Below are positions 3,736 to 51,481 of a stretch of DNA of 54,354 nucleotides, piece after piece. Each line of letters opens with the position of its first letter. The first letter of the stretch is position 1. The stretch is from a virus (taxonomy: Duplodnaviria > Caudoviricetes). A model generated the notes under the pieces. It searched no databases. It saw only the letters and a program-made list of their open reading frames with translations, and was not told the DNA's origin. The stretch spans positions 1 to 54,354 of IMG/VR virus record IMGVR_UViG_3300035180_000153; one strand, 5' to 3'. Position numbers and translations under genes: made by a program.

Positions 3736-3745
3736 GATGTTTCTC

Positions 3746-18601: not shown

Positions 18602-18638
18602 AGTCAAAAACGCATAACACTGGTACGGCCATTCAACT

Positions 18639-31566: not shown

Positions 31567-34500
31567 CTATGGCGACAATCTTCTTGCTATCTGATCCTGT
31601 TGCTGACGTAGCGCATTGATCCTTTCCTTCTTCTCGTCTGCATCCATGATGTCGCTGCGCTCGATAAACTTAATGCGGTTGTTTAGCATCGTTTCCTGGC
31701 GCTTTATCGCCTCTACTCGCCTGTACTTGGATAGCTCATCCTGATGTTCGTCGCGGTATGCCGCCGCCTCTTCTTGCTTACCTTCCTTCATGAGTTCGTG
31801 CCAAGTTGCATAAGCCTGCTCGATCTCGCGCGCCTGATCGTACATCATTGTCACATATCGGCTTGGCGCGCCGTCCAACTCGGAAACCATGCTGCCGGTA
31901 ATTGTTTTCCAATAGTCCAGCGCGGGCCGTGTAGGCTCGTTGCTGGCGGATCGAACCGCAATATCTGCCGTGCCAACGGCGAATGCGCCCAGCCAGCCAA
32001 AGTACGATCTGATTAAATGATCTACTTGGACTGGCGACAAGAAATGATCTCCGGTAATGGTATTCCCGGCGGTGCTGATACCGCGCCCGATCATGCTGGT
32101 ATTTTGGTTAAAGCGATAGTCTGGGGCTAGGCGTTCCATGCCCATCGTTTCAATCGGCCTTTCGGTGAAGCTATCATGGTTTGCGTATACATCAATTATA
32201 GGTTTGAATAGCTGCGGAACAGGGTTCATTGAAAGCTGATTATCGATGTTATTCAACACCACCCCAGAGAACCTTTTGAACGTCATTTCATCATCAAACG
32301 CAAGCTCTGCTGTTCTTTCTGCCAGGTTGCTGATTGCGCCAATCTCGAACGGTTTAGGAATCCTGAATGCCTCGTCTCCGATTTTGAACCACCAGTAATT
32401 ATCCCGATCCCAATCCTCGCGTTTCTTCCAGTCGTCGTCATCGCCGTATGCGGCAAGCAGCGCCAGCGATGCCAACGCCACGCCACCTATCACGATGGCG
32501 AACCGCGCCGGGTCTTCTTTCGCCGCTCGGCCAAGTTTGTAAAGTCCCTGCAAACGCGCGTTCATGAATGGGACAATCTGCGTGAGGAAGCGGATCGTTT
32601 TCCAAGTCCCACGCATGGAGAAATCCATCAGGTCGCGCGCCATAAGCGATGCGGTTGCATGGTCTACGCCTTTCCTGATTAGCGAGTCGTATAGCGCCAT
32701 GCGGTTGATTTCCTCGCCTCGATTTCCGAGTTCTTCATATGCAGAAATCAATGGTTCTGCGTACTTGTCGTAGAATGCACGCACTTTGCTCTCGTTATCC
32801 AGAATGTGCTGATCGCTCGCGCCATTCTTGATGAGTTGACGCACGCGGCTTGCCTCGTTTCCTTCCAGCATTGTGCCGAATCGAATCAAGCCTCCGCCAG
32901 CCAGTGCCGAGACATACTCCTGCGCCGCGCGGTCAGTCAGTTTGTATCCTTTCATCACGTTACTAAGCGGGTTATAACCCATGTCAGCGGTTGCAATCGA
33001 CTGAATGGAGTCGCGGATCAGGTTGCGCACCTTGAAGAATGGCGATGCCGTGACGCCTACCGTCAGCCAGTGCTTCATGGTGGACATGGCGTCCATTGCC
33101 GGGCCTCGCAGTCCGGCATACTCCAGGCCGTTGATTGCGTCCAGCAGGTAGGGGTCGTCAACCTTGTATTCGACTTTTTTTCCTCCACTCATGTGCCATA
33201 CTGTTTTCTTATCTCCGGGTAATGCAAGTCTTGCAGCTCCGACTTTAACAGCAGCTTGCAGAGTAGCGGTTGCCGCGCGATTCTTGGCGCTGGCATCTAT
33301 CAGGTGCGCCCAATTCATCAGGGTATTGGCGAGTAAATCGTTCAACTTCTCGTCGCCGCCCTTGAGTTTCTTGAATGCTTCTTGGCGCACGACTCCTTGC
33401 TTGATATTCATTCCGCGAATGCCGCCGTCATTTTCGTCTACCGTGCGGTAGAACGGAACGTAGAACTCATGCTCCCACAGGTGGCGACTTTCTGGATCAA
33501 TAAGCCCTGACTGTTCTGCCATGTCCAGCACGTTCTTGTTGAACTCATTGAACTTCCTGAGCGAGTCGCGGTAAATCAATATCCGTTTGCGTGTGACGTT
33601 ACCGTTCGGCATGGTGTAGTCAAAATCGGTATCGCCATTTGCAAGCGATTTGAACGCGTTAATATCGTCAAGCGTGAACAGGTTTTCCCTATCTTCTTTC
33701 GCCAGTCTCTCGGCGCGGTTGCCTGCTACCCAGCGCAAGAAGTCGGTGGATTCCTTCCCAAGCGGGTAAAACACCTTCTCCAGCGCGCCTCCGCTGGTAT
33801 CTGCATCATAAGCGCCATCGCGCAACAATAGCTTTCCGTGGCGCATGAACGCCTCGAATGCTCCTGACGCGCCGCTGGACAGACGCATCAGTGTATAAGC
33901 ATGCGATGACAGATCGCGCACGGGTCTGAACTGGTCGAATACGCCCTGGGCGAGCTTCTTACCAGCGTCCTGCCAGAGCGACTTGACGGTTTCCTGGATG
34001 GTTTTCTTGGTGACGACAGAGCCGGTGCGCTCCATCGCAGCAAGTTGCTCTGGGGTGTAGGCGCGACCAGATGCTCCAATGATGGAAGATTTGCTAAACC
34101 GTGTATTTATGTCTGCATTGTTCTGTGCATTTTGAAGCGCCGTAGGCGCGTTGCGAGTGGCCTGGGTAGCCATATAAACAATATCCGATTCATTCAGCCT
34201 GTTTGCCCACTGAACCCATTGCAATTTCTGGATTCCTTTGAGTTTATCTCCAAGCTTGCGAAGGGCGTCGCGGAACCATGCGATGACTCTCTGAGAAAAT
34301 GTCAGGTCTGGATTGGCTTCAAGAAAATACCCCAGGCTTTCTTCGTCAACTAAATGCGCTGGCGTTCCTTCCGGGACTCGCGCTTGCGCTTCTATAACCT
34401 TCTCGTTTCCGGCCTTGCCCATCATCTTGAACTGGCGCAGTATCTTCTTGAATTCTGCATCAGAGCGTCCGAGCATCAGAGCGTGATCGCCAAGCTCGTG

Positions 34501-37500
34501 CAGCAACAAACCCTTCACACTATCGCCTGTCTGGCTAATGTTGTCGTGAACGAAGAATGTTTCTCCGTTTCTGACAAATGCCAGGATTCTTCCGTCTTTG
34601 GAGTAGCGAATATCTGGGTTGGTTTGGTTGAAGGTATCTGTTTGCGATGCCTTGCTGAAATTCTTCCCTTCCCCAAGATACTTCCCAATATCCTCGCTCC
34701 CGATAATGTGGAACTTTCTAGTTGCAATCAGCGCGTCCGCAAAGTTCTTAGTCCCTTGGAATGCCGAATTGATTGCCTCTCGAAGCGTGGATTCGGTGTG
34801 CGGATTGCGGGTGAGTGTTGCTGATCGGCTGTACTTGGTAGACTCGTCCAGCGCATCGCCAAACCCAAGTTCTCGCAGTTTCGCCTTCTGCTGCTCAATA
34901 CCTGAAACCACAGCGACTTTCTGTTCAACAGGAACTTCTGGCCCTTTCGCCATAAGCGCACGCTGGACTTTCTTGTAATCCTCTCGTGCTCTCTCCAAGT
35001 CTGCGGCTTGCGGGAATGGCTGCTTGGCAAGTTCGCGCATCGAGGCGGAATCCTTTTTCGATTTCTCGATGCTGGCAAGCGTATCATCCAGCATGGCAGG
35101 CAGCCGGTCAATGTAGTTCTTTAGGCGCTGCACCATACCAGACGGGGAGAACTGATCGGTCGCTCCCCACATGCCGCCCATGCCGGTAGGTGTGCGCATG
35201 ATGACGTTACCGGCAACGTACTCAAGCTCGAATGCAAGGCCACGATATTGAATTGAAGCCTTGTCGATCATGTGGCTGCGCACGTTTTCGAATACGGAAG
35301 CCAGCGCCTTGTTGGCCGAATCCTTGTCGGTCAGCGCCTTTCCTCCCTGAACGCTGATTGGCGAGAATCCATCCTTATCTACAGGGTGCTTGGCAATGGT
35401 TTCCAGATTCTTCCTGATCTCTCGCACGAATGCCGGCCCAGATGTATCTGCGTACTCCTGCGCACTACGGGCCTTGCGCGTCATGGCCAGCACTTCGTCG
35501 GCGTACGCTGCCTGCAAATTCTCCAGGCGTCGAACGTCAGTGCGCAGCTTGGTTTCCTCAAGGATCAGAGGGTCTCCGGATGCGGCGGCCTTCATGTCGG
35601 CGGCATTCGCTGCTTCGCCCTCTATGTCGTCGATTTCGTTGAGCGTTCCGTCGTAGTTGCGTAACTGTTCGATCCCACGCGCCTTGTGCTCAAGAATCTG
35701 CCAGCGCCGGGTGTCGTAGGTTTGCGCGGTGGCGTAGCGCCCGATGAAAACCTCGAAGTTTTCCGGATCGCGTTCATACAGTTTGTTACCGCGGCGGATG
35801 ATTCGCCCTTCGCGCTGCTCAAGATCAGAAGGACGCCACGGCGCATCAATGTGATGCAGGCCAACCAAGCGCTCTTGCACGTTGGTTCCGGCTCCCATCT
35901 TTGGCGTAGAACCCAGCAAGAAGCGCACACTTCCATGATTCACGGCTTTGAACAGCTTGTCTTTGGCCGTGGGGGTGTTGTAGTCATGTATGAAAGCGAT
36001 CTCATTCTCCGGAACGCCCTTATCCATCAGCTTGGATTTAATGTCGTCGTACACCGAGAAATTGGCCGCGCCAGAAATTCCAGCCACATCATCCCGTGTG
36101 AAGAATAGGGACGGATCATCAACATCTATGTCGTTTTCGTTGTTGTACTCGTCGATTTCGCTTTGCTCGATTTCGCCGGTTGATTCGCGTGCATTGATCC
36201 ACTTCTGCCGCTTGGCCTCGTCGCCAAGTAATCCACTAGTAGCGTCGATGGCGTCCTGCTTGCTGCGGAAATCGGATTTCAGGCCCTGGCCGGAGGCGGC
36301 GTCATACACGTCGAATCGCTTTGATTCCTTATCGCCGCGCTGCACTACGAAGAACGGCAAATCCTCGTAACCAGGAATGGCGTGCATGGTGCCGCGCTTC
36401 ATCTCGATTCCGCCCGCATCGTCGCGAACGTATAGGCGGCGCGATTTGTTGGAGTAGCTGGAACGGGCAGACAGCGGAATAGACAGATCGCAGAACACCA
36501 GTTGCGTGCCTTTGTCCGCATCCCACTGCTTGTAAATGCGCATCATGTTGTCCACGGCCAGATTGATCTTGGAGCCTGGAAAGTCGGGCGCTTTCGGATC
36601 AATCAGGCGATAATCCAGCCCTGCCTTATTGGCTTCGCCTGTCAGCGATAGCGCATTTACCTTGCCCTTAGTTTCCTTGGTAAGCTGGCGTAGGCGTCCA
36701 AACCTACCAAGTATGGAGTCAGGATCGACCGATACCGATGGCGTCAGCGCACTCTCAACAACCTTGAGACGGGCATCTTCGGCGGTATCGTACAGTCCCA
36801 GATACTTATCGCCAACTCTGGCAGTCCATTTGCCTGATTTCTCGTCCTGCTTGATTTGAATATCGTCGTCAAGATTTGCGTTGAACAGGATGTTTCCGGA
36901 CTCGTCTGTCTGCGCCTTTGGCATGCCCATCAGAGCAGCCACGTATGGCGAGCGTTCGGCAACCACCAGAACTGGCCGACCGCCTACCATCTTTGGCACC
37001 GGGAACCGATTTCCTTGTGCTTCTTCTTGCGCTTTCAGGTCGTCTAGGGTGACGGTATCGGCAAACGTGTTATAGAGGCTCATTAACGCCGGAAGATTGG
37101 TGAACTTGGAAAAGCGGGTCGATTGCCGGTAGCCCGATCCGGATGGTGCAACCTCGTATACGTTTTCCACGCTGCCGAACTGCCTAGCCCATGCGTCGAA
37201 CACGTTCAGCCCCAGACGTTTCAAAGTCGGGTACTGCATGTACCGCTGCATGTTGAACATCTCCACCAGCGAGTTTGAAATCGGCGTACCTGTTGCTGAT
37301 ATGAACGGAGTCTTGTCGCCGAAGGTATCGAACATCCAGCGGGTTTTTACGAATAGATCGAATGCTTTTGCAGAACCAGCAGGATTGCCCATGCCGGGGT
37401 TGCGATCCATCGTCGTGTTGTAAGCCAGGTTCTTGAACTCGTGCATTTCGTCGATGAACATGGCGTCAACACCCAATTCGTCGAACGTAACCATCTTGCT

Positions 37501-40500
37501 GCGCTTACCCAATGCGGACAGTTTGTCCTTCATCTTGGCATCCAGATTCTTGCGGATACGCTCCATGTCGGCGGTGATTCGCTTGTCGCCGCGTGCTCGC
37601 TTCATGTCCTCGATGGCATCAGCCAATTCGTCAACCTGTTCTTGCAGGACGGCAATCTCGGTTTTCTCTGGCAGGCCGATTTTCTTCAGTGAAGAATGTC
37701 CGACCACCACAGCATCCCAGTCTCCTGTAGTTATCTTTGCAAACAGGCGCTCCCGGTTGTCCTTACTGAAATCCTCTGGTGCGGCAGCCAGAATGTTAGA
37801 GCCTGGGTAAAGGCGGGTGAAATCACTGCGCCATTGCAGAGTTAGGTGGTTTGGCACCACTATCAACGGCTTGCGTGCGATGCCAAGGCGGCGCATCTCC
37901 ATTGCCAGCGTTACCATCTCGAATGTCTTTCCAGCCCCAACGACATGATCGTATAGCACCTGATAGGTCTGCAAGCCACGCCAAACTCCGTTCTTCTGGT
38001 GCGCCAGCAGTGAGTAGGACGGATTCATCCCCGGGAAACTCATGTGCGAGCCGTCATATTTACGCTCGACAATCCGGTTCATTTTGTCGTTGTAGATTGA
38101 GGCGATGCGATCAGCACGCTCTGGGTCTTGCCATAGCCATTTCTGCCACTCTGCCTTGATGGCGTTCTGTTTTTCGCGGGCGGCTTCGGTTTTATCCTCA
38201 AGCAGGATCGTTGTGGTGGAACCGTCGTGATTGCGCAGCGTCTTTTTCACAACAGCGCCACGGCCCATCATTGTTAGTTGGAACAGTTCTTGAGCAGACA
38301 TGTCTGACGTTCCGAAGCGCCCACTATTCAGGGCCGGATCGTTGCCATTGTCGAAAGCCATCAGCCACTGTCCTGTTGACTTGATGTAGCTTGCGGTCGC
38401 GCTACCACCCGAGATGTGCTTGGCGAATTGCTCATAAACATCTGCAGGAACGAATTCGGCACCGATGCTCACGGAAATCTCGCTAGGCGTCTTGTCCTTC
38501 GGGACGATCTTTTCAAGCGCCTCCACGTTTCTGCGGTACTTGTCATTTCCCTGCGCGGCATACTTTGCCTCATCCAGCTTGGTTTTTACATCGCCAGAAA
38601 GGTACTCGTCGGCGGTCACGATGCCATTTTGCGGATCGTCGAACACAACGTCGCCAAGTTCCTTGACGATCTCATCCATTGGTTTGCCATAGACTTCGGC
38701 CATGTAGTCAGGATCAACCTTGCCGCGGTAATTCAGTGATGCCAGCAGCGCATCCTTGGCCGTGGTTACGGTCATGTGATCCTGCGGAGGGAAGGCGACA
38801 CGGCGCTTAAAAATGTCGGCCTTGGTAGCGCTGGCTTCACGTTGCTCAATTCCTTCCTTCTCGGCGGTCGCCTTGCCAATCCCCTTGTCGTAGTCAAATT
38901 CCAGCGCCTGAATAAGATGGGATTCTGGGTCATCAAGGAAGATGCTTCGGTTGGTGGTGCTGTTAAGATGCTTGTACTTCTTGAGGAAGTCGTCATAAAG
39001 CCGGTTTAGTTCGGCACGGTTGGCTTCGATGTCCTGCTCGGTTGCGTCAACGGATCGCTCCAGGCGCATCTGCTTACGCAACGCGTCACGAATGGCGATC
39101 ATGCCCTTCATGCGCCCGATCTGCGACTCATAGCGTGGTTCCCATGCAACAGCGGTTTTGTTGCCCATCAGGTCATTGCCACGTTGCATTACCTTATCAT
39201 CTGCATCGACGTAGTACGATCCCACCTTGATTCCATCTGGCACGGCCATATCCACCACGGCGGCATCGCTTGCACGGTCTATGTTGTCGAACATGTTTTC
39301 CGGAAGCGACTTTGCCCACTTAGCCAATTCGTTCTTGAGATCACCGTCTTGTTCAACGGTGTATTCATTTGCAGAATACATGGAGCCGCCCGCCGATGGC
39401 TTGCCAAGCACGTACTGCTGGTTTGCTACGAAGAACTGATTGACGTTGTGGGTTACGTGTTCCCCTGTCTTGGGGTTGATGTTGATCTGCTCAACTACGT
39501 CCTGCCACGGGGCGATAGAATCCGGAAATCCGTTGTTGTCGTGTTTCTGGAATATCAGGATGTCGGTCACAACCTCGGTGCCAGCATTATCCTTGAATGC
39601 TGTGTTTGGTAGGCGCACTCCGCCGATCAATCCAGCGCGTTCTCCGATCCACTTGCGCACGCGGGTGTCCTGTGCATCAAGGAAATTATGAGAGACGACA
39701 ACGGCCATGATTCCGCCTGGCCGTAACTTATCAATGGATTTGGCTAGGAAATAGTTGTGAATGCTGAACCCTGAATACGGGCTGCGCTCCTTATCAACCA
39801 ACGGATACGATCCGAACGGAGGGTTGCCGATCACCACGTCGAAGTATTCGGATGGTATCTCGAAGTCCTGGAAGCCTGTAGCCTCGGCGATTTTGGCTTT
39901 CGGATACAACGCAGACACCAGGCGGCTGGTCAGCGAGTCGAGTTCCACGCCGTAAAGCTGCGAGGCGTTGCGCATCTCTCGCGGCATCAGGCCGAAGAAG
40001 TTGCCCACACCAACAGACGGTTCGAGCACGCGGCCAGACTTGAATCCCAAGCGGGCCAGCGCATCGTACATGCCTTTCACGACTTCCGGGCTGGTGTAGT
40101 GCGCATCCAGGGTGGAGGCGCGGGCAGCACGGAATTCCTCGTCGGTCAGCAATTCCTTGAGTTCATTATGCTGCTTGGCCCATGCCTTGTTGTTGGGGTC
40201 GAACGCGCCTTTCATGGCACCCCATCCAACGTACTTTGACAGCGCCTTGCGCTCTTCTGGTGTTGCGTCTCGCCCCTCGGTTTCGAGTGTCTTGAGAATC
40301 TTGATGGCCGCTACGTTGTCGCGGAACTTCTTGCCAAGTCCGCCTTTGCCGATCTCGTCGGCGTCAATTACGTGGTCTGTTCCTTCTTCGGTAGGGGCAT
40401 CGTGTCGATTGACGCCGCTGGCGGGTTCTGACTCAGGCCGTACACCTCTGCCTTCTCCCAACTCGATAGATGGTTCAGTCCTGGCTCCAGTTTCACCTTG

Positions 40501-43371
40501 ATTTCCTCGCGTTCCTGCGCCTTGAGTGCCTCCAGATACTCCCCGGTTGTGATCAAGTCCTTGACTGTGCTCGGCCAGCCCAGCGCCCAACGGTTGGCGA
40601 TCTCGATGGCCGTTGGCGACATATGACTGATCTTCGTCCGAAGCTCTTTGGGATACTGGCTTGGTTTGTACAGAGTTTGCATTTTGCGATTCCTTGTTTG
40701 CTGATTGATCTGACTTGGTGTCTTTATACGGTTCTTCTGCTGACTTCCCGGGTTCTTGCGCTGTATTTACGTTTTCTGATTCGGGTGTTGATGGTTCGGT
40801 ATGGGTGTTGTTGTTTTCCGTTTCCGGGATGGATGGTTGTCCGGCATGGCCTTCTTTCTTATCCTGCTTGGATGCTATCAGCGCCTTGGCTACGCTAACC
40901 GCTTCGCTCTCTGTCTTGAACGTTCCGATTTCTTTTGTGGGTAAAGCGTTTCCGCCAAATGGAGAATTGAAATACCCGCCAGTCGTAACGGTGAAACCTC
41001 CCTTCCACGGCCTGACTGTTACGCTGTCGTATGCATCGCCGTCAACATTCCCTTTCCATCGCCAAGAATCTCCAGACCGAACCATCCCGATCTTCTCAAA
41101 TTCTGACTGATTTGCTGTTGCGCGCTTGTTCGCCGCGTCACGTTCAGCCTTGATCTTTGCAATCTCGGCTTCGTGTTCCGCTTGTGCGGCAGCGTTTATT
41201 TCTTCGTTGGTTTGTCCTGCAAGGCCAAACGCTTTGCCGCCCGTTTCTTGAGCGCCAGCAGTGCCGTTATCCGCAATTCCTCCGGCGTCATTTTCTCTAG
41301 TCTCTTGCGCTGTTCTTTGCTGATCATTTCCATATTCCTTATTTTCTGCGGGTTCAGCGAAAGGTTTATCTGCTTCTTCTGCCATCTTGGCCGCATCGCG
41401 TGACTTGTATGGCGTTTCTGGCTTTGGAGTGTTGATAGGTGCCTGCTCACCAGCCGATTGGCTTGCAGTCTTAATGACCGCATCGGGTGCGCCCTGTTGC
41501 TGCGGCGTAGGCGTGATGGGTTCAGTATGATTGATGACTGGTTGGTTTTCTTGCTTGATTGCTGTTTGCGGGTGCTGGACAGGCGCGATAGTGTTTTGCG
41601 CACTGGTTTGATTCGCTACTGGATTTGCTGCGTTGTCAGCGGTAATGCCAGAAGACTCAGCCGTTCCGCTTCCGGCCACACTTCTTCCGGTAGTTCCACC
41701 CACCCCGTTTCCATCGACTGCTGGCTGTACCATAGCATCAGGTAAGCCTTGCTGACTGATATTGCCTGCGCTCCCACCGCTATCCGTAGCCAACGTGGGA
41801 GTTTGTTGTCCTGTCGCGCCATTGTCTTCATCCTGTGGTAATACTGGACGCGGCAGCGCTGGTTGCGTAAGCGTTCCTTGCTGGCTTAATTGTTTATTTG
41901 ACGCAACTGTCCATGGCGCGCTCAATGCGCCGCTTGCCATTGCCGCGCGCGTCATTACACCCATCGTATTCTGTGGCTGTTCTGGTTGCGCCGGTATGTT
42001 TTCTCCCACCGTTGCCTGGTTGAGGCTGGGGATGTTCTTATACTGGTACGGTTCTGTCTGTATTGGCGCGGTTGAAGTCGTTGCTTCTGGCGTAGCCGTT
42101 GACGATTCTATCGAAGGAGTTGCTTCTGGCGAAACAGTTGATGCCACTGTAGTAGCAGTTGCTTCAGGCGTAACTTCCGCCGCTTCTGGCGTATTTACCG
42201 GCGGAGTATTTTCCGGCATTGTTGCTGGCGTAACTACAGGAGTAGCAGTCAGTACCGGTCCGGGCTGATTTCCATCAGGTGTGTTTACGGGCTGTGAGAT
42301 TCCTGTATCTGCGCCTGGCTGCCCAGGCTGCACGACATGGTTAGCATTCCGAGCTGTTAGTCCATGTACGCTGCCGCCAAGTAAGGCCAGCAACGCGCCA
42401 GAAAGCCCGCCCTCCACTGACGAGTTAAGCACGCCATCGCCTATCGACTGCGTAGGATCGGCATAGTTACGCATGGCTAGATTTTGGACAAGCTGCTCTT
42501 CGCCAGACTGCCCGAACTCCTGCGCTGCTTCTGGAATAATTCCGCCGAGGATTTCCTTGATGACACTCTTGCGCGCTTTTCGCGCCATCTGTCCCAGGAT
42601 TCCGCCGCCCGTAGCGGCAGAGATTCCGCCTGTAAGCGGTATGGTACGGGCGATGATCTCCTTCTCTGCGCTATCCTTAACCTTCTCAAGCGCCTGCTGG
42701 CGGCGTTCCTGCTCTGGAAGTGTCGGGTCTGTAGCCGCATAGGCACTCTGGTAGAAGGGTGACGCCTGCAACTTGTCCTGCGGTAACTGATCGATTTCCT
42801 GCGCCGTCTGCGCGGCATTTTGCAAACCGGAAAACACGCCTTCCGATGCGGCCATGCCGATGGATGACGGCGCATGTTCACCTATCCACTTGGCGCGATC
42901 TGCGTTCACGCCAAGATTTCCAAGCCCTTTCTCGATAGCCTCTCCAGCGCCTACTCCCTCCAGCGCTCTTGTTGCCTTCGTGCCAGGTACTGCCATCACC
43001 AAATTGCTCGGAATGGATTGCAGTGTGCTAAGTACAGTCGATGCGATCGGAGTCGGGCCGAACGACAAGTCGTCTTTGATTACCGGAGCCGTTAGCGAAA
43101 ACTTACCTCCTGGCGTCAGCGTATTGTTCCAGTAATCCGAGGCGTTGTCTCCAAGGCTGCGTATCCCCTTCCCAATCTCCTCACCCTCCGGAACGCCGAG
43201 CAGTTGAGAACCCTGTTTGATGCCCTCTCCAATACCCGATGCTGCTGCCCCTACGCCTGACGCTAGTGTCTTTGCGTAATCTAGCAATGTCGGAGACTTG
43301 AGTGGCACGGAACGCGCCAGCATCGCTTTCAAATCGTCTTGTGCTGGTGGTGCTGTCAGGGTTTGATCCAT
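31567..43371 (-). CDS. Giant polyvalent/ejection protein: DarB-like N6-MTase + SNF2 helicase, HExxxH segment, LPD38-like C-terminus
   Basis: AHYT, LEPSVGVGNF, GNPPF (~39820); GAGKT (~37930), DEMH (~37445), ATGTP, QREGR; HELGDH (~34490); FRIPKPFE (~32355). Confidence 0.88.
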   Translation of the reverse strand: MDQTLTAPPAQDDLKAMLARSVPLKSPTLLDYAKTLASGVGAAASGIGEGIKQGSQLLGVPEGEEIGKGIRSLGDNASDYWNNTLTPGGKFSLTAPVIKDDLSFGPTPIASTVLSTLQSIPSNLVMAVPGTKATRALEGVGAGEAIEKGLGNLGVNADRAKWIGEHAPSSIGMAASEGVFSGLQNAAQTAQEIDQLPQDKLQASPFYQSAYAATDPTLPEQERRQQALEKVKDSAEKEIIARTIPLTGGISAATGGGILGQMARKARKSVIKEILGGIIPEAAQEFGQSGEEQLVQNLAMRNYADPTQSIGDGVLNSSVEGGLSGALLALLGGSVHGLTARNANHVVQPGQPGADTGISQPVNTPDGNQPGPVLTATPVVTPATMPENTPPVNTPEAAEVTPEATATTVASTVSPEATPSIESSTATPEATTSTAPIQTEPYQYKNIPSLNQATVGENIPAQPEQPQNTMGVMTRAAMASGALSAPWTVASNKQLSQQGTLTQPALPRPVLPQDEDNGATGQQTPTLATDSGGSAGNISQQGLPDAMVQPAVDGNGVGGTTGRSVAGSGTAESSGITADNAANPVANQTSAQNTIAPVQHPQTAIKQENQPVINHTEPITPTPQQQGAPDAVIKTASQSAGEQAPINTPKPETPYKSRDAAKMAEEADKPFAEPAENKEYGNDQQRTAQETRENDAGGIADNGTAGAQETGGKAFGLAGQTNEEINAAAQAEHEAEIAKIKAERDAANKRATANQSEFEKIGMVRSGDSWRWKGNVDGDAYDSVTVRPWKGGFTVTTGGYFNSPFGGNALPTKEIGTFKTESEAVSVAKALIASKQDKKEGHAGQPSIPETENNNTHTEPSTPESENVNTAQEPGKSAEEPYKDTKSDQSANKESQNANSVQTKPVSQRASDEDQSYVANGHRDRQPLGAGLAEHSQGLDHNRGVSGGTQGAGTRGNQGETGARTEPSIELGEGRGVRPESEPASGVNRHDAPTEEGTDHVIDADEIGKGGLGKKFRDNVAAIKILKTLETEGRDATPEERKALSKYVGWGAMKGAFDPNNKAWAKQHNELKELLTDEEFRAARASTLDAHYTSPEVVKGMYDALARLGFKSGRVLEPSVGVGNFFGLMPREMRNASQLYGVELDSLTSRLVSALYPKAKIAEATGFQDFEIPSEYFDVVIGNPPFGSYPLVDKERSPYSGFSIHNYFLAKSIDKLRPGGIMAVVVSHNFLDAQDTRVRKWIGERAGLIGGVRLPNTAFKDNAGTEVVTDILIFQKHDNNGFPDSIAPWQDVVEQININPKTGEHVTHNVNQFFVANQQYVLGKPSAGGSMYSANEYTVEQDGDLKNELAKWAKSLPENMFDNIDRASDAAVVDMAVPDGIKVGSYYVDADDKVMQRGNDLMGNKTAVAWEPRYESQIGRMKGMIAIRDALRKQMRLERSVDATEQDIEANRAELNRLYDDFLKKYKHLNSTTNRSIFLDDPESHLIQALEFDYDKGIGKATAEKEGIEQREASATKADIFKRRVAFPPQDHMTVTTAKDALLASLNYRGKVDPDYMAEVYGKPMDEIVKELGDVVFDDPQNGIVTADEYLSGDVKTKLDEAKYAAQGNDKYRRNVEALEKIVPKDKTPSEISVSIGAEFVPADVYEQFAKHISGGSATASYIKSTGQWLMAFDNGNDPALNSGRFGTSDMSAQELFQLTMMGRGAVVKKTLRNHDGSTTTILLEDKTEAAREKQNAIKAEWQKWLWQDPERADRIASIYNDKMNRIVERKYDGSHMSFPGMNPSYSLLAHQKNGVWRGLQTYQVLYDHVVGAGKTFEMVTLAMEMRRLGIARKPLIVVPNHLTLQWRSDFTRLYPGSNILAAAPEDFSKDNRERLFAKITTGDWDAVVVGHSSLKKIGLPEKTEIAVLQEQVDELADAIEDMKRARGDKRITADMERIRKNLDAKMKDKLSALGKRSKMVTFDELGVDAMFIDEMHEFKNLAYNTTMDRNPGMGNPAGSAKAFDLFVKTRWMFDTFGDKTPFISATGTPISNSLVEMFNMQRYMQYPTLKRLGLNVFDAWARQFGSVENVYEVAPSGSGYRQSTRFSKFTNLPALMSLYNTFADTVTLDDLKAQEEAQGNRFPVPKMVGGRPVLVVAERSPYVAALMGMPKAQTDESGNILFNANLDDDIQIKQDEKSGKWTARVGDKYLGLYDTAEDARLKVVESALTPSVSVDPDSILGRFGRLRQLTKETKGKVNALSLTGEANKAGLDYRLIDPKAPDFPGSKINLAVDNMMRIYKQWDADKGTQLVFCDLSIPLSARSSYSNKSRRLYVRDDAGGIEMKRGTMHAIPGYEDLPFFVVQRGDKESKRFDVYDAASGQGLKSDFRSKQDAIDATSGLLGDEAKRQKWINARESTGEIEQSEIDEYNNENDIDVDDPSLFFTRDDVAGISGAANFSVYDDIKSKLMDKGVPENEIAFIHDYNTPTAKDKLFKAVNHGSVRFLLGSTPKMGAGTNVQERLVGLHHIDAPWRPSDLEQREGRIIRRGNKLYERDPENFEVFIGRYATAQTYDTRRWQILEHKARGIEQLRNYDGTLNEIDDIEGEAANAADMKAAASGDPLILEETKLRTDVRRLENLQAAYADEVLAMTRKARSAQEYADTSGPAFVREIRKNLETIAKHPVDKDGFSPISVQGGKALTDKDSANKALASVFENVRSHMIDKASIQYRGLAFELEYVAGNVIMRTPTGMGGMWGATDQFSPSGMVQRLKNYIDRLPAMLDDTLASIEKSKKDSASMRELAKQPFPQAADLERAREDYKKVQRALMAKGPEVPVEQKVAVVSGIEQQKAKLRELGFGDALDESTKYSRSATLTRNPHTESTLREAINSAFQGTKNFADALIATRKFHIIGSEDIGKYLGEGKNFSKASQTDTFNQTNPDIRYSKDGRILAFVRNGETFFVHDNISQTGDSVKGLLLHELGDHALMLGRSDAEFKKILRQFKMMGKAGNEKVIEAQARVPEGTPAHLVDEESLGYFLEANPDLTFSQRVIAWFRDALRKLGDKLKGIQKLQWVQWANRLNESDIVYMATQATRNAPTALQNAQNNADINTRFSKSSIIGASGRAYTPEQLAAMERTGSVVTKKTIQETVKSLWQDAGKKLAQGVFDQFRPVRDLSSHAYTLMRLSSGASGAFEAFMRHGKLLLRDGAYDADTSGGALEKVFYPLGKESTDFLRWVAGNRAERLAKEDRENLFTLDDINAFKSLANGDTDFDYTMPNGNVTRKRILIYRDSLRKFNEFNKNVLDMAEQSGLIDPESRHLWEHEFYVPFYRTVDENDGGIRGMNIKQGVVRQEAFKKLKGGDEKLNDLLANTLMNWAHLIDASAKNRAATATLQAAVKVGAARLALPGDKKTVWHMSGGKKVEYKVDDPYLLDAINGLEYAGLRGPAMDAMSTMKHWLTVGVTASPFFKVRNLIRDSIQSIATADMGYNPLSNVMKGYKLTDRAAQEYVSALAGGGLIRFGTMLEGNEASRVRQLIKNGASDQHILDNESKVRAFYDKYAEPLISAYEELGNRGEEINRMALYDSLIRKGVDHATASLMARDLMDFSMRGTWKTIRFLTQIVPFMNARLQGLYKLGRAAKEDPARFAIVIGGVALASLALLAAYGDDDDWKKREDWDRDNYWWFKIGDEAFRIPKPFEIGAISNLAERTAELAFDDEMTFKRFSGVVLNNIDNQLSMNPVPQLFKPIIDVYANHDSFTERPIETMGMERLAPDYRFNQNTSMIGRGISTAGNTITGDHFLSPVQVDHLIRSYFGWLGAFAVGTADIAVRSASNEPTRPALDYWKTITGSMVSELDGAPSRYVTMMYDQAREIEQAYATWHELMKEGKQEEAAAYRDEHQDELSKYRRVEAIKRQETMLNNRIKFIERSDIMDADEKKERINALRQQQDQIARRLSP
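40368..40682 (-). CDS. Overprinted gene (+1 frame) inside the giant gene, 104 aa
   Basis: AAGGA RBS; globular composition (EIANRWALGWP..VK.LI..GEYLEAL) where the main frame is a low-complexity linker. Confidence 0.65.
   Translation of the reverse strand: MQTLYKPSQYPKELRTKISHMSPTAIEIANRWALGWPSTVKDLITTGEYLEALKAQEREEIKVKLEPGLNHLSSWEKAEVYGLSQNPPAASIDTMPLPKKEQTT
41196..41327 (-). CDS. Overprinted gene (+1 frame), 43 aa basic helix
   Basis: AAGGA 8 nt upstream; MISKEQRKRLEKMTPEELRITALLALKKR. Confidence 0.4.
   Translation of the reverse strand: MISKEQRKRLEKMTPEELRITALLALKKRAAKRLALQDKPTKK
41616..41822 (-). CDS. Overprinted gene (+1 frame), 68 aa
   Basis: AGGA upstream; LPRWLRIAVGAQAISVSKAYLMLW...VELPEEVWPEAERLSLL is globular-like. 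Confidence 0.5.
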   Translation of the reverse strand: MARQDNKLPRWLRIAVGAQAISVSKAYLMLWYSQQSMETGWVELPEEVWPEAERLSLLALPLTTQQIQ

Positions 43372-43381
43372 GTCATATACC

Positions 43382-44827
43382 TCAATTCAAAAGAGTGGCT
43401 TCGCCGTTCACGACTTTCATTGCCTTTCCGGTTACAGGATCAATCCGAATGCCGTCTTTAATCGGTTGTTGTTGATCCTGTGACGGAGGCGGTGTTAGCC
43501 AACGTCCGGAATCAGTGTCATAGAGATAATCAACAGGAACTGGATTTCCTGCCTGATCCCTAGTGACTGTACGGACGCGCTCATAATTGCGCCTGGTAGG
43601 GCTTTTTCCGGTGTATAGCATAATTTCCCTTGCAATCTTGCTTTGGCGATCCGGATCAGCATTCAGATATTCTTTTTGCAGATCGTCGATACGCTGCTTC
43701 TGCGCCAAGTCAATATTTGCGGATTGTCCTTGCGTGTTAAGGAGATTCATTTCTGCATTTGCCTTTGTGTTCGCATTGGCTTGCTGCGTGTTCGCATTGG
43801 CTTGCTGCTCGGATGCGAGTTGATTCTTGAACATCCTGTTCGCGGTGTTGTTCGCGGCAATCTGGTTTGCGGCATTACCAGCCTGGTTAACAAATCCAGC
43901 CATTGCGCTCATTATACCGCCTGATGTATTCAATGATGGCATAGTTGGAGAGGAGAGTTGCGGAGTAGATGGATTTGCAACAATCCTCTGATGAGACATC
44001 TGCGGCTGAGGCTGCGCGGAAATCATGGTTGTCTTGCCGGTACTGTTATTTGTGATCCAGCCTGTACCGGGAGCAGGAATGTCGCTCTCGTCGAACGATG
44101 TTTGTTGATTATCGGGAGAAACATAAACAGGCGCGGACTGTGATGTTCTTGTCGGCGGTGTAAGTTGTGCCTGATTCGTGGAATGTACACGATTCGATGA
44201 ATGTTCAGCGATCACTTGTTCAGGTGTCTTTCCGCCGAGGTTTACCTGTACGCCAGAATTAGGTAGCTGGCCGAGCTTGTCCAATCCCCATTTGTAGACG
44301 GATTCCGGTATCAAGTCTGCCGCTGTCATACCAACCGCAACCGGGCGCGCAAACTGCGCTACTCCTGGGATGAACGATCCGGCCCCAACGGCGGTACGAA
44401 TTACGTTATCGGCTGTCGATGCCGGTTCGTATCTTCGATCTGGCGTTACCATTCCGGTGTTTGCGGCCAGTCCGTATCCTCCCCTGGCGAGTTGATCTAA
44501 CCCGGCCATTTTACCGGCCCATCCTTGCAAGGTATTATTTGCCATATCAGCCGCGCGTGATACCATCGGAGCCTTTGGTGCTGCGCTTGCCGTTGCTTCA
44601 TTTTCTATTGTCGCAGAACCTGGTGCGGGCGCATCCGACGATCCTGATGCTGCCGCAGAACCTGGCGCAGATGCTGGCGCTGCCCCATCAACAGGCATCG
44701 AATCTATGGCCGCCATTTTGGTTGCAGTGTCATTTGCGATTTTTTGTTTGGCACGATCAAGGCTGTACTTAAAGTAATTATCATCTTGATTCATGTTTGG
44801 AGGCGTCAAAGTAGCCATTCTAATCAC
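43382..44827 (-). CDS. Putative DNA ejection/pilot protein
   Basis: Ala/Gln/Asn-rich, helical; lies upstream of the giant protein. Confidence 0.6.
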   Translation of the reverse strand: MIRMATLTPPNMNQDDNYFKYSLDRAKQKIANDTATKMAAIDSMPVDGAAPASAPGSAAASGSSDAPAPGSATIENEATASAAPKAPMVSRAADMANNTLQGWAGKMAGLDQLARGGYGLAANTGMVTPDRRYEPASTADNVIRTAVGAGSFIPGVAQFARPVAVGMTAADLIPESVYKWGLDKLGQLPNSGVQVNLGGKTPEQVIAEHSSNRVHSTNQAQLTPPTRTSQSAPVYVSPDNQQTSFDESDIPAPGTGWITNNSTGKTTMISAQPQPQMSHQRIVANPSTPQLSSPTMPSLNTSGGIMSAMAGFVNQAGNAANQIAANNTANRMFKNQLASEQQANANTQQANANTKANAEMNLLNTQGQSANIDLAQKQRIDDLQKEYLNADPDRQSKIAREIMLYTGKSPTRRNYERVRTVTRDQAGNPVPVDYLYDTDSGRWLTPPPSQDQQQPIKDGIRIDPVTGKAMKVVNGEATLLN

Positions 44828-46650
44828 TCCGATTTGGTTTGTACTGCCAGGGCGTTGATGCTATTCAGCGCCGCCGTAATCATGCTGGAGTAGACATTAA
44901 CACCAGCGGTTGCAGCGCCTAAATTCAAGTCTGCCTGCTTGGATGCTTTCTCCAATTCTAGTTTCGCTTTTCCAAGATTGTTCTGCAAAGACAACGAATT
45001 TCCATCTATGTTTACGCGCTCACTAGATACAGCGAGATCGCCAATGGCCTGCTGCGATCTGACGCGCGATTCATAAGCCTGTATGTCTGCACCATAAACG
45101 CGCTCTTTTAGTCCCTCCACCTGCAATATGGTTTCTAGCGTTGTCCTATATTGTGTGATCTGCGAGTTGTACTTGTCCAATTCCGCCCTTGCCTTCTCGA
45201 TCTCTGATTTTAGCACCAGCGATTCGACTTCTGTCTTGGCCTTGGCGGCCTCCACGGTTCCGGTATAAGCTCGTACTTGAGCGTCGAATATCTGCGCCTT
45301 GCCAAGCTCGCCACGCACCTTCGCCTCGAAGGCGTTGAACTCCGCGCTCTTGGCTTGCACTTGTGATACATAGGCTTCGACTTGGGCGCGGAATGCGTCT
45401 AGATTAAGTTTTTCTACGTTTGCCTTGACGTTCGCCGCCTCGACTTGTGTTCTGTACAGATTGACAAGTGTTTCGTGCGCCTCAATTCCTGCCTTGTACT
45501 GGTTGATGCGCGTCATGTTCACATCGGCGCGAATCTTCTCAACATCTGCCGTATTGCGGTACTGCTCCAACAGCAAGCTATTGGCGCGTAACTTCGACTC
45601 GAACACCTGGGCTTCTGTCTTGTACCCGTCCAGCATCGCGTTATACGCCGTCACCCGTGCGTTATATGACGCGATGGCAGCGTCAATCAGATACTTGCTG
45701 GCATTCAGCAAACGCTCCATCATGGAGCCGTGGTACTGGATCAGAACGCCCTCAAGCTGACTCCCCTGCTGAATGGTGAACTGGCGATTCTGTACGTACA
45801 AGTCGGCGCGTTTCAGCGCAACCTCTCGGTTGAATGTAGAAGATGCGTCTTGGAGCGCCTGACGTGATTTCTCCAGCGCACCGAAGAATGTCCCTGGAGG
45901 AACGCTGAATCGACGCGCTGAAAACTCTCGCTCTATCTCGTCTATAGACTGATTGGCATTAGCCATTTCACGATCACGTGCGCGATCCCACAGCTTCAAT
46001 TCGTCGTTTGTTTCGATTCCATACCCGCCATTTGTCAAATCTGCCTGCAATTTAAGCCGCAACAGATTCAGCAATTCGGATGAGTAATCCTGCTCGTTGA
46101 AGCTAAATACTTCGCTTGGCGGTGTCAGCGTTGCGCCGGATGGAGCGACTGCCGTGAAGTCGATAGTAGGAAGATTAGGTTGTGACGGGATATGGATGTC
46201 ATCCAGTGCCGGAACGTTGCCAAAACTGGCTAGGTTGATGTCAGGGCCGTTGCCGATTGTCGGTGCGGTAAAGTTTGGCGCAGCGCCGAAACCCTTGTCA
46301 GGGAACACCAAAGACGGCGCGTTACCGACATCCAGCGACGGCGCGCTACCTGCGAACGGTGAGATTGATACCTTGTCTGGAGCCGTGAAGTCAGAAATGC
46401 CTGGCGCAACAGGCGGAGTAACGTTTTCCGGGAAACTGAAGTTCGGCCTGGCTGGAATATCTTTCTGGATGTTGTCGATGTACTGCTTCACCAAATCTTG
46501 GTAGAAATACCCACTCCACATACTGAAGTCATCGCCACCCAATTTTGCAAATGCAAATTGCCCGATGCGATTTACTAAAGCCTGCGCTTGATCTACCCAC
46601 CCGTCTGCGAACTTGACGGAATTATCAATAATTGATGGAACGTCTGCCAT
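44824..46650 (-). CDS. Putative internal virion/ejection protein (long coiled-coil)
   Basis: Pro-rich N-terminus followed by extended heptad repeats. Confidence 0.6.
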   Translation of the reverse strand: MADVPSIIDNSVKFADGWVDQAQALVNRIGQFAFAKLGGDDFSMWSGYFYQDLVKQYIDNIQKDIPARPNFSFPENVTPPVAPGISDFTAPDKVSISPFAGSAPSLDVGNAPSLVFPDKGFGAAPNFTAPTIGNGPDINLASFGNVPALDDIHIPSQPNLPTIDFTAVAPSGATLTPPSEVFSFNEQDYSSELLNLLRLKLQADLTNGGYGIETNDELKLWDRARDREMANANQSIDEIEREFSARRFSVPPGTFFGALEKSRQALQDASSTFNREVALKRADLYVQNRQFTIQQGSQLEGVLIQYHGSMMERLLNASKYLIDAAIASYNARVTAYNAMLDGYKTEAQVFESKLRANSLLLEQYRNTADVEKIRADVNMTRINQYKAGIEAHETLVNLYRTQVEAANVKANVEKLNLDAFRAQVEAYVSQVQAKSAEFNAFEAKVRGELGKAQIFDAQVRAYTGTVEAAKAKTEVESLVLKSEIEKARAELDKYNSQITQYRTTLETILQVEGLKERVYGADIQAYESRVRSQQAIGDLAVSSERVNIDGNSLSLQNNLGKAKLELEKASKQADLNLGAATAGVNVYSSMITAALNSINALAVQTKSE

Positions 46651-46662
46651 GACAATGCCCCA

Positions 46663-46688
46663 ATAAAAATCCCACCTGGTGGTGGGCT
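46663..46688 (-). terminator. Rho-independent terminator
   Basis: CCCACC-ACCA-GGTGGG followed by ATTTTT. Confidence 0.6.
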
Positions 46689-46743
46689 TATGAATCTAAA
46701 AATACGGGAATTGATATACTATGTATTTTATATATCGGCGTTA

Positions 46744-48336
46744 TCAAACCCGTCTGGAATAAGTTTCTGCTACAACCTCCAGCGCATCCAACTCCATATC
46801 CGATCCTCCCGTGTTGGCGATGGTGAACTGGTAATAGCGCGACTTCATACCGCGCCCCATGTCGGCTTTGTGCTGGCGCATCGTCGTACTATCTTCCGGG
46901 TGTATGTCGTAGTCGTAGGATTCGTGCTCATCCATTTCCACCGTCAGCATTACCTGCTCTGAGGACTTGCAAGATAGGTAAGCGTCCGTCAGTCGCTTCA
47001 TGCTGTTGGCCCCGAAGTCTGACTTGCCTGTTGTGATGCTGGCCTGAATTTCTGCCCCGTTGTCACTCGCTCCGTCCAGGAAGAACAGCCCTGATGCGCT
47101 TGCGCCGATCATGCGCCCGTTGAACTCCGCCATTGAATTGAACGGATAGCCCTGATACTCGGTGATTGCGCCAGTCTTTAGGTTCATCGCCAAGACATGC
47201 CATTGATCCGCCTGGCCCACCGCTCCAGAAATGAACGCCGTCATCGGCTTGATCTTGGTGTCTATCGTTCCGTAATAGGCCAGATACCCGGTGAATGACG
47301 ACGAGATCAATCCAAGCGTGGCGCTTATGCTTCCTCCAACACCATTCGCACCGGTTATCTCGCCTGAAATCACTGGCAATCTGGAATTAATACTGCCGGT
47401 GATTTCTATAACTCCGGTAATACTTCCAGTCAAGACAGGAAGCGCGGCATCAATTGATCCGATAGCGCCTGTCTGCCCGACGATGCTTCCAGTAATCGCC
47501 GGAATCGTTGCATCAATGGAACCTGACGCGCCTACATAACCCGTGATCTGCGCAGTTATGAGAGGAAGGACTGCATTGAAGCTCTCTATCCCACCTGTGA
47601 TATTGCTGGTAATTACCGGCAAGCTGGCGTCGAGTGATCCTGTTACGCCAACAAGTCCAGCGATCGATGACTCCATGCGCCTCAAGGTTGCATCAAGCGA
47701 TCCCGCGACACCAACAAGTACATCAAAAGAAGACTCCATGCCAGGCAATGCGGAATCTAGCGATCCTATGACGCCTATATCGCCAGTAATATCGCTGGTG
47801 ATCACTGGCAATTCAGCAGATATAGTACCGCCTAAAGCATTCGTGCTTTCAACGATAGCCGAGCCGCCAACCTTTACCCCGCCGCTGGAGACATAGAAGT
47901 TATCGCTGACAATTGCAGAACCAGTAACCTTCACGCCACCATGTCCAAAGACTGTCAGCGAGGTAACGTTGTAGCTTGCATCTATCGCGGAGCCGCCTAC
48001 CTTAACACCACCGCTTCCGGACATTATCAGCGGAATATTCTGAATGTACGTAACATCAGCGGTTCCGCCTACCTTAACCCCGCCGCGTCCAGTTATTATC
48101 AGCGGATCATTGGCTATATCTGCCATTCCGCCTACCTTAACACCACCGCTTCCAGTTATTATCAGCGGAGGATTTGGGATATACGTAACGCCAGCTGTTC
48201 CGCTTACCTTAACCCCGCCACTTGTCGTCATAGAGTACGTTGACGGCCCTGACTCTCCGAACTGGAATGAAGGCAGCATTACACCAGCTGTCGGTGTCTT
48301 ATATCCGAATTGGAATGAAGGTAGTGTAAAAGACAT
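46744..48336 (-). CDS. Repetitive virion/tail protein
   Basis: Six GGVKV(G/S/T)G repeats, GSIDAxLP repeats, C-terminal globular domain. Confidence 0.7.
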   Translation of the reverse strand: MSFTLPSFQFGYKTPTAGVMLPSFQFGESGPSTYSMTTSGGVKVSGTAGVTYIPNPPLIITGSGGVKVGGMADIANDPLIITGRGGVKVGGTADVTYIQNIPLIMSGSGGVKVGGSAIDASYNVTSLTVFGHGGVKVTGSAIVSDNFYVSSGGVKVGGSAIVESTNALGGTISAELPVITSDITGDIGVIGSLDSALPGMESSFDVLVGVAGSLDATLRRMESSIAGLVGVTGSLDASLPVITSNITGGIESFNAVLPLITAQITGYVGASGSIDATIPAITGSIVGQTGAIGSIDAALPVLTGSITGVIEITGSINSRLPVISGEITGANGVGGSISATLGLISSSFTGYLAYYGTIDTKIKPMTAFISGAVGQADQWHVLAMNLKTGAITEYQGYPFNSMAEFNGRMIGASASGLFFLDGASDNGAEIQASITTGKSDFGANSMKRLTDAYLSCKSSEQVMLTVEMDEHESYDYDIHPEDSTTMRQHKADMGRGMKSRYYQFTIANTGGSDMELDALEVVAETYSRRV

Positions 48337-48339
48337 GGT

Positions 48340-49170: not shown

Positions 49171-49173
49171 ATC

Positions 49174-49581: not shown

Positions 49582-49593
49582 GGTGTTCTCCTT

Positions 49594-50046: not shown

Positions 50047-50062
50047 TTCATAACCTCCAAAT

Positions 50063-50110
50063 AAAAAAACCCGCAATCAGCGGGTGTAAAAAAACCCGCC
50101 GAAGTGGGTT
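50063..50110 (-). terminator. Two tandem Rho-independent terminators
   Basis: ACCCAC-TTCG-GCGGGT plus T run, then ACCCGC-TGATT-GCGGGT plus T run. Confidence 0.75.
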
Positions 50111-50126
50111 TGGTGGGGAACTTGTA

Positions 50127-51466: not shown

Positions 51467-51481
51467 TTTGAATCTCCTTTT

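Follow-up and report, generated by a model that had tools for sequence, protein, structure and literature searches.

The phage genome IMGVR_UViG_3300035180_000153 (Duplodnaviria; Caudoviricetes), which is complete at 54,354 bp with direct terminal repeats and whose whole length is called the window here, carries a giant gene for a 3934-amino acid (aa) DarB-like polyvalent protein. A small open reading frame (ORF) embedded in the +1 frame of this giant gene, ORF C, is very probably a real protein-coding gene, judging from comparison with its relatives. It lies immediately upstream of the LPD36-methylase-helicase module of the giant protein. An earlier inspection of the window without database searches (the sequence-only reading) had proposed three overprinted genes, ORFs A, B and C, in the linker of the giant protein. 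This proposal held firmly for ORF C, which was conserved and under purifying selection in the +1 frame, and possibly for ORF A, for which one pairwise signature and no homolog were found, but not for ORF B.

ORF C and its two reading frames

A tblastn search identified a relative of ORF C in Pseudomonas stutzeri phage 8P (51% identity, E = 7e-21), which is a 90-aa ORF starting with ATG within a giant coding sequence (CDS) and likewise in its +1 frame. The giant CDS is 8P_023, and the relative occupies 4001-4273 of locus L001, about 31545-31817 in MT152150.1. In addition, 13 contigs of IMG/VR contained ORF C relatives, whose identities ranged from 51 to 92%. At 14 of 14 loci, the ORF C match was +1 relative to an open frame of 2011 to 3514 codons. 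Relatives in the +1 frame of a giant methylase-helicase gene were found at 28 other loci. The possibility that ORF C is an in-frame domain displaced by sequencing error was ruled out, because 29 independent sequences share the frame relation.

The alignment of ORF C spanned 88 codons without a gap, and the third frame contained 4 to 9 stops across the loci. The mean pairwise differences at the nested codon positions 1, 2 and 3 were 0.298, 0.244 and 0.490, respectively, of which the nested position 3 is position 1 of the host frame. For 91 pairs, the +1 frame had a ratio of nonsynonymous to synonymous differences (pN/pS) of 0.44, a median ratio of the corresponding substitution rates (dN/dS) of 0.25 and an aa identity of 61%, whereas the host frame over the same codons had a pN/pS of 1.59, a median dN/dS of 1.84 and an identity of 38.5%. 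Thus, the comparison of dN/dS in both frames that the sequence-only reading had suggested as a check showed ORF C to be constrained in the +1 frame, in a way that the main frame alone does not explain. As an empirical control, 10 other related pairs were compared in 60-codon windows, about 135 in total. Host position 1 was more variable than host position 3 at the ORF C site in all 10 pairs, and elsewhere only once, in a saturated window. None of the 25 nested copies had a stop in the host frame, whereas synonymous-codon shuffling of the small gene gave a mean chance of 0.29 for a stop-free host frame. By this comparison the host frame over ORF C is still selected to stay open.

The aligned start of ORF C was ATG, GTG or TTG at 26 of the 29 nested loci, and AGGA, GGAG or GAGG was present at positions -16 to -5 at 19 of them. 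Both hallmarks of an embedded gene, purifying selection of its own and a start codon with a ribosome-binding site of its own, were therefore found for ORF C.

An exhaustive phmmer search with ORF C returned 78 cluster representatives, all unnamed, at E <= 1e-3, including 26 at E <= 1e-10, and most of them were 88–100 aa long. A second database contained 75 relatives, the few of which that had a source name were labelled 'hypothetical protein', and a search of the ESM Atlas returned unnamed clusters only. The identified relatives share an invariant tryptophan and an IANRW.LGWP core, and the net charge of the family is neutral to mildly acidic, with a median of -2. The AlphaFold2 model of ORF C, built from the family alignment, has five helices with a predicted local distance difference test score (pLDDT) of 91.8 and a predicted template modelling score (pTM) of 0.78. 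Of the earlier claim that ordered helical proteins are read where the main frame is a P/Q/T/E/G linker, the linker composition was confirmed for the main frame and the helical product for ORF C only. In one database protein, P0057, the two ends read as the ORF C family and the part between them as the host-frame linker, which suggests a double frameshift in the contig or a mixed gene call.

Module border, free-standing copies and a sister gene

The giant protein consists of an N-terminal part, a long low-complexity linker, an LPD36-like/N6-methylase/superfamily 2 (SF2) helicase module and a C-terminal LPD38 (PLxRFG). Its Pfam matches are LPD38 (aa 3645-3814), N6_Mtase (Table 1), Eco57I, ResIII, SNF2 and Helicase_C. 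LPD36 itself gave no match in the Pfam scan of the host protein, and a GXGU-type YVGWG motif was found within the conserved main-frame region after ORF C. A tblastn search with the methylase region found DarB-like proteins in 128 phage records, many of which are annotated as 'DarB-like antirestriction', and matched darB of P1 and P7 with E values of 2e-18 to 3e-18. Given these matches, the host is a DarB-like polyvalent protein in the sense of the main text of PMC5512222, from which the definition of LPD36 was also taken. Its Pfam domains, the YVGWG motif and the tblastn match to darB identify the LPD36-adenine methylase-SF2 helicase module in the host gene. The conserved main-frame module, including the region of the LPD36-type GXGU motif, begins directly past the end of ORF C.

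In most nested loci, tblastn homology to the giant protein begins at residues 849-897 of the window protein, most commonly at 889-897, which is the start of ORF C. In five nested loci (L029, L033, L045, L056 and L057), it begins later, at residues 909-993. The homology continues through the helicase, and the sequence upstream of its start differs among the loci. Because of this common start and the divergent upstream sequences, the small gene and the methylase-helicase can be regarded as one module fused to varied N-terminal parts, and by this comparison ORF C marks the upstream edge of the conserved LPD36-methylase-helicase (DarB-like) module. At locus L026, from a Rubrivivax metagenome-assembled genome, the giant host frame stops at 6752 and the methylase-helicase homology runs to about 11849; the stop may reflect a pseudogene, an assembly error or a read-through site.

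The ORF C family was also found in bacterial DNA. A scan of one genome per prokaryotic species identified 47 more loci, mostly from Beta- and Gammaproteobacteria. Among 61 loci, 28 copies were nested in or overlapped the 5' part of a methylase-helicase gene, 30 were free-standing, which was defined as having no methylase-helicase gene within 6 kb, and 3 were unclear. The free copies, found in plasmid-like loci or loci resembling integrative and conjugative elements (ICEs), adjoin genes for a relaxase with LPD7, KfrA, TrfA, integrase, an Rv2179c-like exonuclease and metallophosphatase, and the short-overlap copies adjoin KfrB and ParA-type genes. An unrooted family tree was built from 53 small proteins, with 9 rows dropped as duplicate, truncated or unclear. 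It requires at least 8 switches between nested and free copies, 7 of which are forced by well-supported branches, and none of 500 label shuffles gave a number as low. The host frame was open in 48% of the free copies versus 19% expected, which hints that many of them descend from nested ancestors. The comparison thus contains hints of nested-to-free moves for many free copies, and the unrooted tree does not settle the direction. The suggestion of the sequence-only reading that the giant gene grew by absorbing small genes is accordingly borne out in part and for ORF C, by the free-standing family and by the varied N-terminal fusions of the module.

Two named plasmids, pACP4.3 of Acidovorax (L064, 6568-7594) and an unnamed plasmid of Cupriavidus (L065, 1323-2241), carry the small gene in nested form. 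On both, the NCBI pipeline called the small gene and placed the start of 'N-6 DNA methylase' beyond its end. The methylase frame is, however, open for 306-342 codons above the annotated start, across the small gene, and this upstream extension reaches an N-terminal domain conserved between both plasmids. The large gene therefore seems to have been truncated in the annotation to avoid overlap with the small one. It had been expected that gene callers would miss such genes. The eight phage records examined contain no annotation of a nested gene, but in both plasmids the small gene was called and the large one was truncated.

When this region of other DarB-like phages was searched with the profile in all six frames, only weak matches resulted, all of which were in +1 open stretches just upstream of LPD36. 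At the slot of ORF C, the phages PEp14, SopranoGao, Itty13, VvAW1 and Atu_ph08 share a conserved +1-frame protein of about 105 aa (Table 1). Its ATG lies inside a main-frame AAT-GAA pair and is preceded by a motif similar to the Shine-Dalgarno (SD) sequence in all five phages. The variability at nested positions 1, 2 and 3 was 0.338, 0.298 and 0.461, versus 0.255, 0.227 and 0.561 in a flanking host-frame control, and the aa identity was 56% in the nested frame versus 39% in the host frame. The net charge of this sister family ranges from -5 to -11. Two of the four members scanned matched the Pfam family TnpV at E <= 1 and below its gathering cut-off of 27 bits (PEp14, E = 4.3e-4 and 20.7 bits; Itty13, E = 0.015), and ORF C with its 36 relatives gave 0 matches among 37 proteins at E <= 0.01. 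An hhalign comparison of the ORF C family with the sister family aligned 54 columns with P = 0.009, which is suggestive of a relationship and not conclusive. A profile search of the PDB with the sister family returned a designed repeat protein only (E = 0.055).

A +1 open stretch ending at the methylase region was also found in the phages BcepIL02 of Burkholderia (L071, 1037-1447) and Gerry of Ralstonia (L072, 1070-1462). The two stretches share a core, 'KAP..Y..MKADGTL..YL', that was read by eye only, and they may represent a third variant of the nested gene. In Itty13 (NC_070969.1, 161-8467), both CDSs annotated over the DarB-like region are opposite in strand to the tblastn match of the methylase; the annotation may have picked antisense ORFs.

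Together, these comparisons show that the +1 frame is the one under aa constraint and that the host frame is a fast-changing linker kept stop-free only. The small gene has its own conserved start and ribosome-binding motif and is autonomous, with free-standing copies in plasmid- and ICE-like DNA, and a divergent, weakly TnpV-like sister gene fills the same slot in many cultured DarB-like phages. As no promoter-like site was found near the ORFs, ORF C is presumably translated by internal initiation on the mRNA of the giant gene; a search for terminator-like sites on the gene strand near the ORFs was also negative. The predicted product is a neutral-to-acidic protein of about 12 kDa with five helices. 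Because the small gene and the methylase-helicase are inherited as a unit in phages and plasmids, the protein may work with, or regulate, the methylase-helicase anti-restriction module early after DNA entry. We propose this role of partner or regulator only tentatively, as a possibility rather than an expectation; the tie could be that of an assembly factor, a regulator or an independent DNA-entry function. The sequence-only reading had put forward chaperones or regulators of the methylase-helicase, a likewise conjectural role. Complex prediction for ORF C with host residues 1002-1561 gave a score of 0.01, which is below the cut-off and weighs neither for nor against binding.

Table 1. Positions of the giant gene, its nested reading frames and the sister genes. 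Positions are those of the window, or of the named phage locus for the sister genes.
Feature	Position	Strand	Length, basis or status
Host gene, 3934-aa DarB-like polyvalent protein	31567..43371	-	largest ORF, Pfam and tblastn
N6 adenine methyltransferase domain of host protein	39532..40128	-	aa 1082-1280, Pfam
Low-complexity main-frame linker holding ORFs A, B and C	40369..42384 (approximate)	-	about aa 330-1001, read from translation
ORF C	40682..40368	-	104 aa from first ATG; conserved core residues 1-88; supported nested gene
AGGA ribosome-binding motif of ORF C	40692..40695	-	9 nt upstream of start codon
ORF A, from first ATG	41831..41616	-	71 aa
ORF A, from second ATG (start in the sequence-only reading)	41616..41822	-	68 aa; candidate nested gene from haplotype comparison; possible
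AGGA before ORF A ATG 41822	41831..41834	-	8 nt upstream
ORF B, open frame from GTG	41603..41196	-	135 aa; unsupported
ORF B, from internal ATG 41327	41196..41327	-	43 aa; unsupported
Sister gene, PEp14 (L066)	3435-3749	-	
Sister gene, SopranoGao (L067)	3414-3737	-	
Sister gene, Itty13 (L068)	1124-1444		
Sister gene, VvAW1 (L069)	1052-1378		
Sister gene, Atu_ph08 (L070)	611-916		

The neighbors upstream of the giant gene (43382..53785) are virion structural, internal virion and head-closure genes. The phage also contains two more DNA methyltransferase genes on the minus strand, at 17870-18730 and 24380-25453, one of which is fused to a ParB-like region.

ORFs A and B and the rival readings

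ORFs A, B and C are all on the minus strand and shifted by +1 relative to 43371..31567, as the distance of each start from 43371 leaves a remainder of 1 on division by 3. Each of them lies wholly inside another gene, on the same strand and in another frame, which is the layout of an embedded gene. The starts of the sequence-only reading lie, as it described, within main-frame AAT-G pairs (GAC-AAT-GGC for A, GGA-AAT-GAT for B and CAA-AAT-GCA for C), with AGGA 8, 8 and 9 nucleotides (nt) upstream, respectively. AGGA, GGAG or GAGG at -15 to -5 precedes just 7 of the 101 +1-frame ATGs of the giant gene, and A, B and C are among these 7. For A and B, this count is subject to a selection effect, as the chosen starts are internal ATGs of longer open frames. 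The giant gene contains nine +1-frame ORFs of at least 40 aa that start with ATG. When the codons of the linker (aa 331-1010) were shuffled 2000 times, at least three ORFs of 43 aa or more arose in 37% of the shuffles, and the longest ORF reached 104 aa or more in 17%. The lengths of ORFs A to C alone are thus within chance expectation. Other long +1-frame ATG ORFs on the minus strand of the giant gene are at 42477-42875 (132 aa), 34728-35087 (119 aa), 35622-35936 (104 aa) and 38772-38996 (74 aa). The sole windows compared around these other ORFs, in host codons 1010-1550 of the window and contig L002, showed an ordinary host-frame pattern.

The main-frame segments under ORFs A and B were found only in the closest contig, L002. 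A related haplotype was recovered from four metagenome runs; it equals L002 where the two are comparable and also covers the N-terminal part of ORF A. Among the differences listed between ORF A and this haplotype, there were 20 substitutions, of which 11, 5 and 4 were at host positions 1, 2 and 3, respectively. Ten of the 20 were silent in the +1 frame and 3 in the host frame. The null mean for silent-in-+1 changes was 4.7 under a uniform null (P = 0.007) and 5.7 under a spectrum-preserving null (P = 0.022). The identity between the haplotypes was 88% for the protein of ORF A and 77% for the host reading. One change in the haplotype removes the upstream ATG at 41831 and at the same time converts the AGGA before 41822 to AGGAGG. 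Directly upstream of ORF A the silent-in-+1 pattern was absent, and ordinary coding regions of the same pair showed the opposite pattern, in that 16 of 29 and 17 of 30 differences left the host-frame residue unchanged. For this pair, ORF A gives a signal as strong as that of ORF C, in which 9 of 20 differences were silent in the +1 frame (P = 0.015). These results suggest that ORF A may be a real, young, lineage-restricted second nested gene, which we consider a serious possibility falling a little short of an even chance.

Several observations weigh against ORFs A and B. Neither had a homolog beyond contig L002 in INPHARED phages (tblastn), IMG/VR, metagenome contigs (two scans) or a near-length protein-database search of 5.8 billion clusters, so that the homolog search suggested by the sequence-only reading supported ORF C alone. 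The signal of ORF A comes from one related haplotype and 20 substitutions, and against the most relaxed null, in which host positions 1 and 3 are equally variable, its P value was about 0.03-0.06. This haplotype was partly read from a variant table; beyond the differences listed, there are 72 over the 1601-base stretch and about 2 in the ORF A contig. The single-sequence AlphaFold model of ORF A was uninformative (pLDDT 54). For ORF B, 10 of 24 differences over the whole ORF were silent in the +1 frame (P = 0.026), but the substitutions at host positions 1, 2 and 3 numbered 11, 3 and 10, a pattern that weak host-frame constraint alone is expected to give, and they carry no signature of selection on ORF B itself. 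Nor does its long form stay open in the closest relative, L002, where it is interrupted by an insertion of about 470 nt with stops in the +1 frame. ORF B is in all likelihood a chance ORF, and that it is a real gene is quite unlikely. This insertion occupies about 307-824 of L002 and falls between positions 41427 and 41383 of the window. Its host-frame translation looks like an additional ordered segment, and the linker therefore appears to gain and lose modules quickly. In the metagenome runs X1 and X4, some contigs match the window only over the block 41588-41759, the C-terminal two thirds of ORF A, with identities of about 90%, and continue on either flank into sequence unrelated to it, which suggests mosaic haplotypes with a breakpoint within ORF A.

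The complete proposal of the sequence-only reading, a nested 'operon' of three small real proteins, draws on the common frame, the AAT-G context and the spacing and scarcity of the AGGA motifs. It also draws on the silent-in-+1 excess of A and of whole B, and on the keeping or strengthening of the motifs in the L002-type haplotype, where AGGA of B becomes AGGAG as that of A becomes AGGAGG. The positional pattern of B obtainable from a relaxed linker, the broken long form of B, the lack of homologs for A and B, and starts chosen among internal ATGs where 37% of shuffles yield three such ORFs make this proposal very unlikely. The reverse proposal, that there is no gene at all and that conservation is a by-product of host-frame selection on chance +1 frames, agrees with the chance lengths of the ORFs and the absence of homologs for A and B. 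It is excluded for ORF C by the host-frame dN/dS of about 1.8 together with the lower identity of the host frame, and free-standing copies without a host gene around them, the confident fold model and a selection signature confined to the ORF C site leave it almost no weight. Frameshift products are common in phage genes, and the +1 frame in the window is open for 28 codons above the ATG of ORF C; hence ORF C might be reached by a programmed +1 ribosomal frameshift, which would give a truncated N-terminal protein ending in the C domain. Conservation, however, begins exactly at the ATG, and the +1 stretch upstream varies from 5 to 58 codons and is not conserved. Moreover, conservation extends to the start codon and the SD motif, the free-standing copies share this first residue, and among the 78 database relatives there is no long protein that carries an in-frame copy joined to the methylase-helicase. 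A frameshift is thus highly improbable.

What the product of ORF C does is open to more than one explanation. It might be a DNA-binding factor of mobile elements, of the Xis/TnpV-like or helix-turn-helix (HTH) type, that is independent of the methylase-helicase that grew over it. The relaxase, KfrA, TrfA, ParA-type and integrase genes next to free copies, the sub-threshold TnpV matches of the sister family and a marginal match in the PDB profile search, whose sole hit was the HTH region of AlpA (7xya_G, E = 0.031, 38 residues), favor such a factor, and TnpV has been postulated to be Xis-like in the accessible text of PMC3158075. However, DNA binders rarely have such charges as the median of -2 in the ORF C family and the -5 to -11 of the sister family, none of the HTH families in Pfam matched ORF C or its relatives, and the structure searches were not significant. 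Given also that phages and plasmids alike repeatedly have the gene tightly coupled to the border of LPD36, which favors a link to the module, an independent DNA-binding factor is rather unlikely. A broader reading takes ORF C as one of an ancient, distantly TnpV-like group of small genes at the N-terminal border of the LPD36 module across tailed phages and conjugative plasmids of many hosts, whose product would be a cofactor or regulator needed by the counter-defence machine and whose linker would spawn young nested genes such as ORF A. At least three subfamilies would belong to it: the ORF C type, the 'MNLN.W' type (PEp14, SopranoGao, Itty13, VvAW1 and Atu_ph08) and the BcepIL02/Gerry type. 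This broader reading is doubtful, though somewhat less so than an independent DNA-binding factor.

The proposal of ORF C as an embedded gene tied to the DarB-like module also has evidence to reckon with. Its product is putative, and the case for it is made by comparison and a model. None of 37 family members had a match in Pfam, PHROGs or NCBIfam, so that the libraries assign no function, and PADLOC matched 1 of 37 (E = 0.007). With ORF C as the query, Foldseek against the PDB and a fold search of BFVD each gave 0 matches at E <= 1e-3, and the best Z score of a wide VIA-align fold search was 4.8, which is not significant. For about half of the copies in the family, a methylase-helicase is missing from the surrounding 6 kb, which weakens the idea of a dedicated partner. 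Finally, the putative link of ORF C to the sister family and TnpV is one profile comparison plus sub-threshold Pfam scores.

Known systems and significance

Embedded genes are known from the lambda-type spanins, in which Rz1 and Rz occur in embedded, overlapped and separated layouts and the embedded gene is usually missed by gene callers (accessible text of PMC6139136). Similar to Rz1 as described there, ORF C is a small gene that is entirely contained in a larger gene of the same strand, is read in the +1 frame and has a start of its own. Different from Rz1 and Rz, however, the proteins are unrelated to spanins and belong to a DarB-like anti-restriction module rather than to lysis. The host here is a giant polyvalent protein, in which the embedded protein is ordered and conserved and the host reading is a disordered linker. 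Moreover, no spanin family mixes embedded with overlapped or separated layouts according to the same text, whereas the ORF C family tree requires its repeated switches between nested and free copies.

Similar to TnpV (PF14198) of Tn4451-type mobilisable transposons, the predicted product of ORF C is a small helical mobile-element protein to which no function has been assigned, and the sister family shares the core motif region of TnpV at the sub-threshold scores given above. The difference is that these scores are under the Pfam cut-off and that the ORF C family itself is tied to the sister family by the hhalign comparison only. No description of TnpV as a gene nested in another was found in the literature searched. 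Similar to the DarB proteins of P1 and P7 and the LPD36-methylase-helicase module as treated in the main text of PMC5512222, the host gene carries the module, and the nested gene abuts LPD36, its first domain. P1 darB, however, begins at LPD36 and thus has no room for a nested gene, and it carries none. The terms 'overlapping', 'frameshift' and 'TnpV' do not occur in the main text of PMC5512222, whose supplements, with the LPD36 boundaries, could bear on an earlier notice.

Overprinted genes are best known from small viruses, such as E within D of phiX174, and typically one of the two readings is ordered and older and the other disordered. Similar to E and D, ORF C and its host are two proteins from one DNA stretch in different frames; different from them, ORF C is found in a 54-kb tailed phage, in which there is no obvious size pressure, and the same gene occurs free-standing in plasmids. 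In the literature searched, supplementary files being outside the search, no description of a gene nested in DarB-like genes was found. The embedded-gene architecture is already known, and this family has not previously been described in that literature.

Annotation pipelines mishandle such loci, as either the small gene is omitted or the large gene is truncated. As a clean natural example, the ORF C locus would show an ordered protein in the embedded frame and an overprinted linker in the host frame. A mutation that leaves the host protein unaltered can abolish the nested start, so that cultured phages allow a direct test of the question. Few counter-restriction devices of phages and conjugative elements are as common as the DarB-like methylase-helicases, whose genes are annotated as single giant ORFs. 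If ORF C is indeed a gene, functional and structural studies of DarB-like proteins would lack a component, namely a conserved and separately translated small protein at the module edge, and its presence would explain why a 'disordered linker' is conserved at the DNA level.

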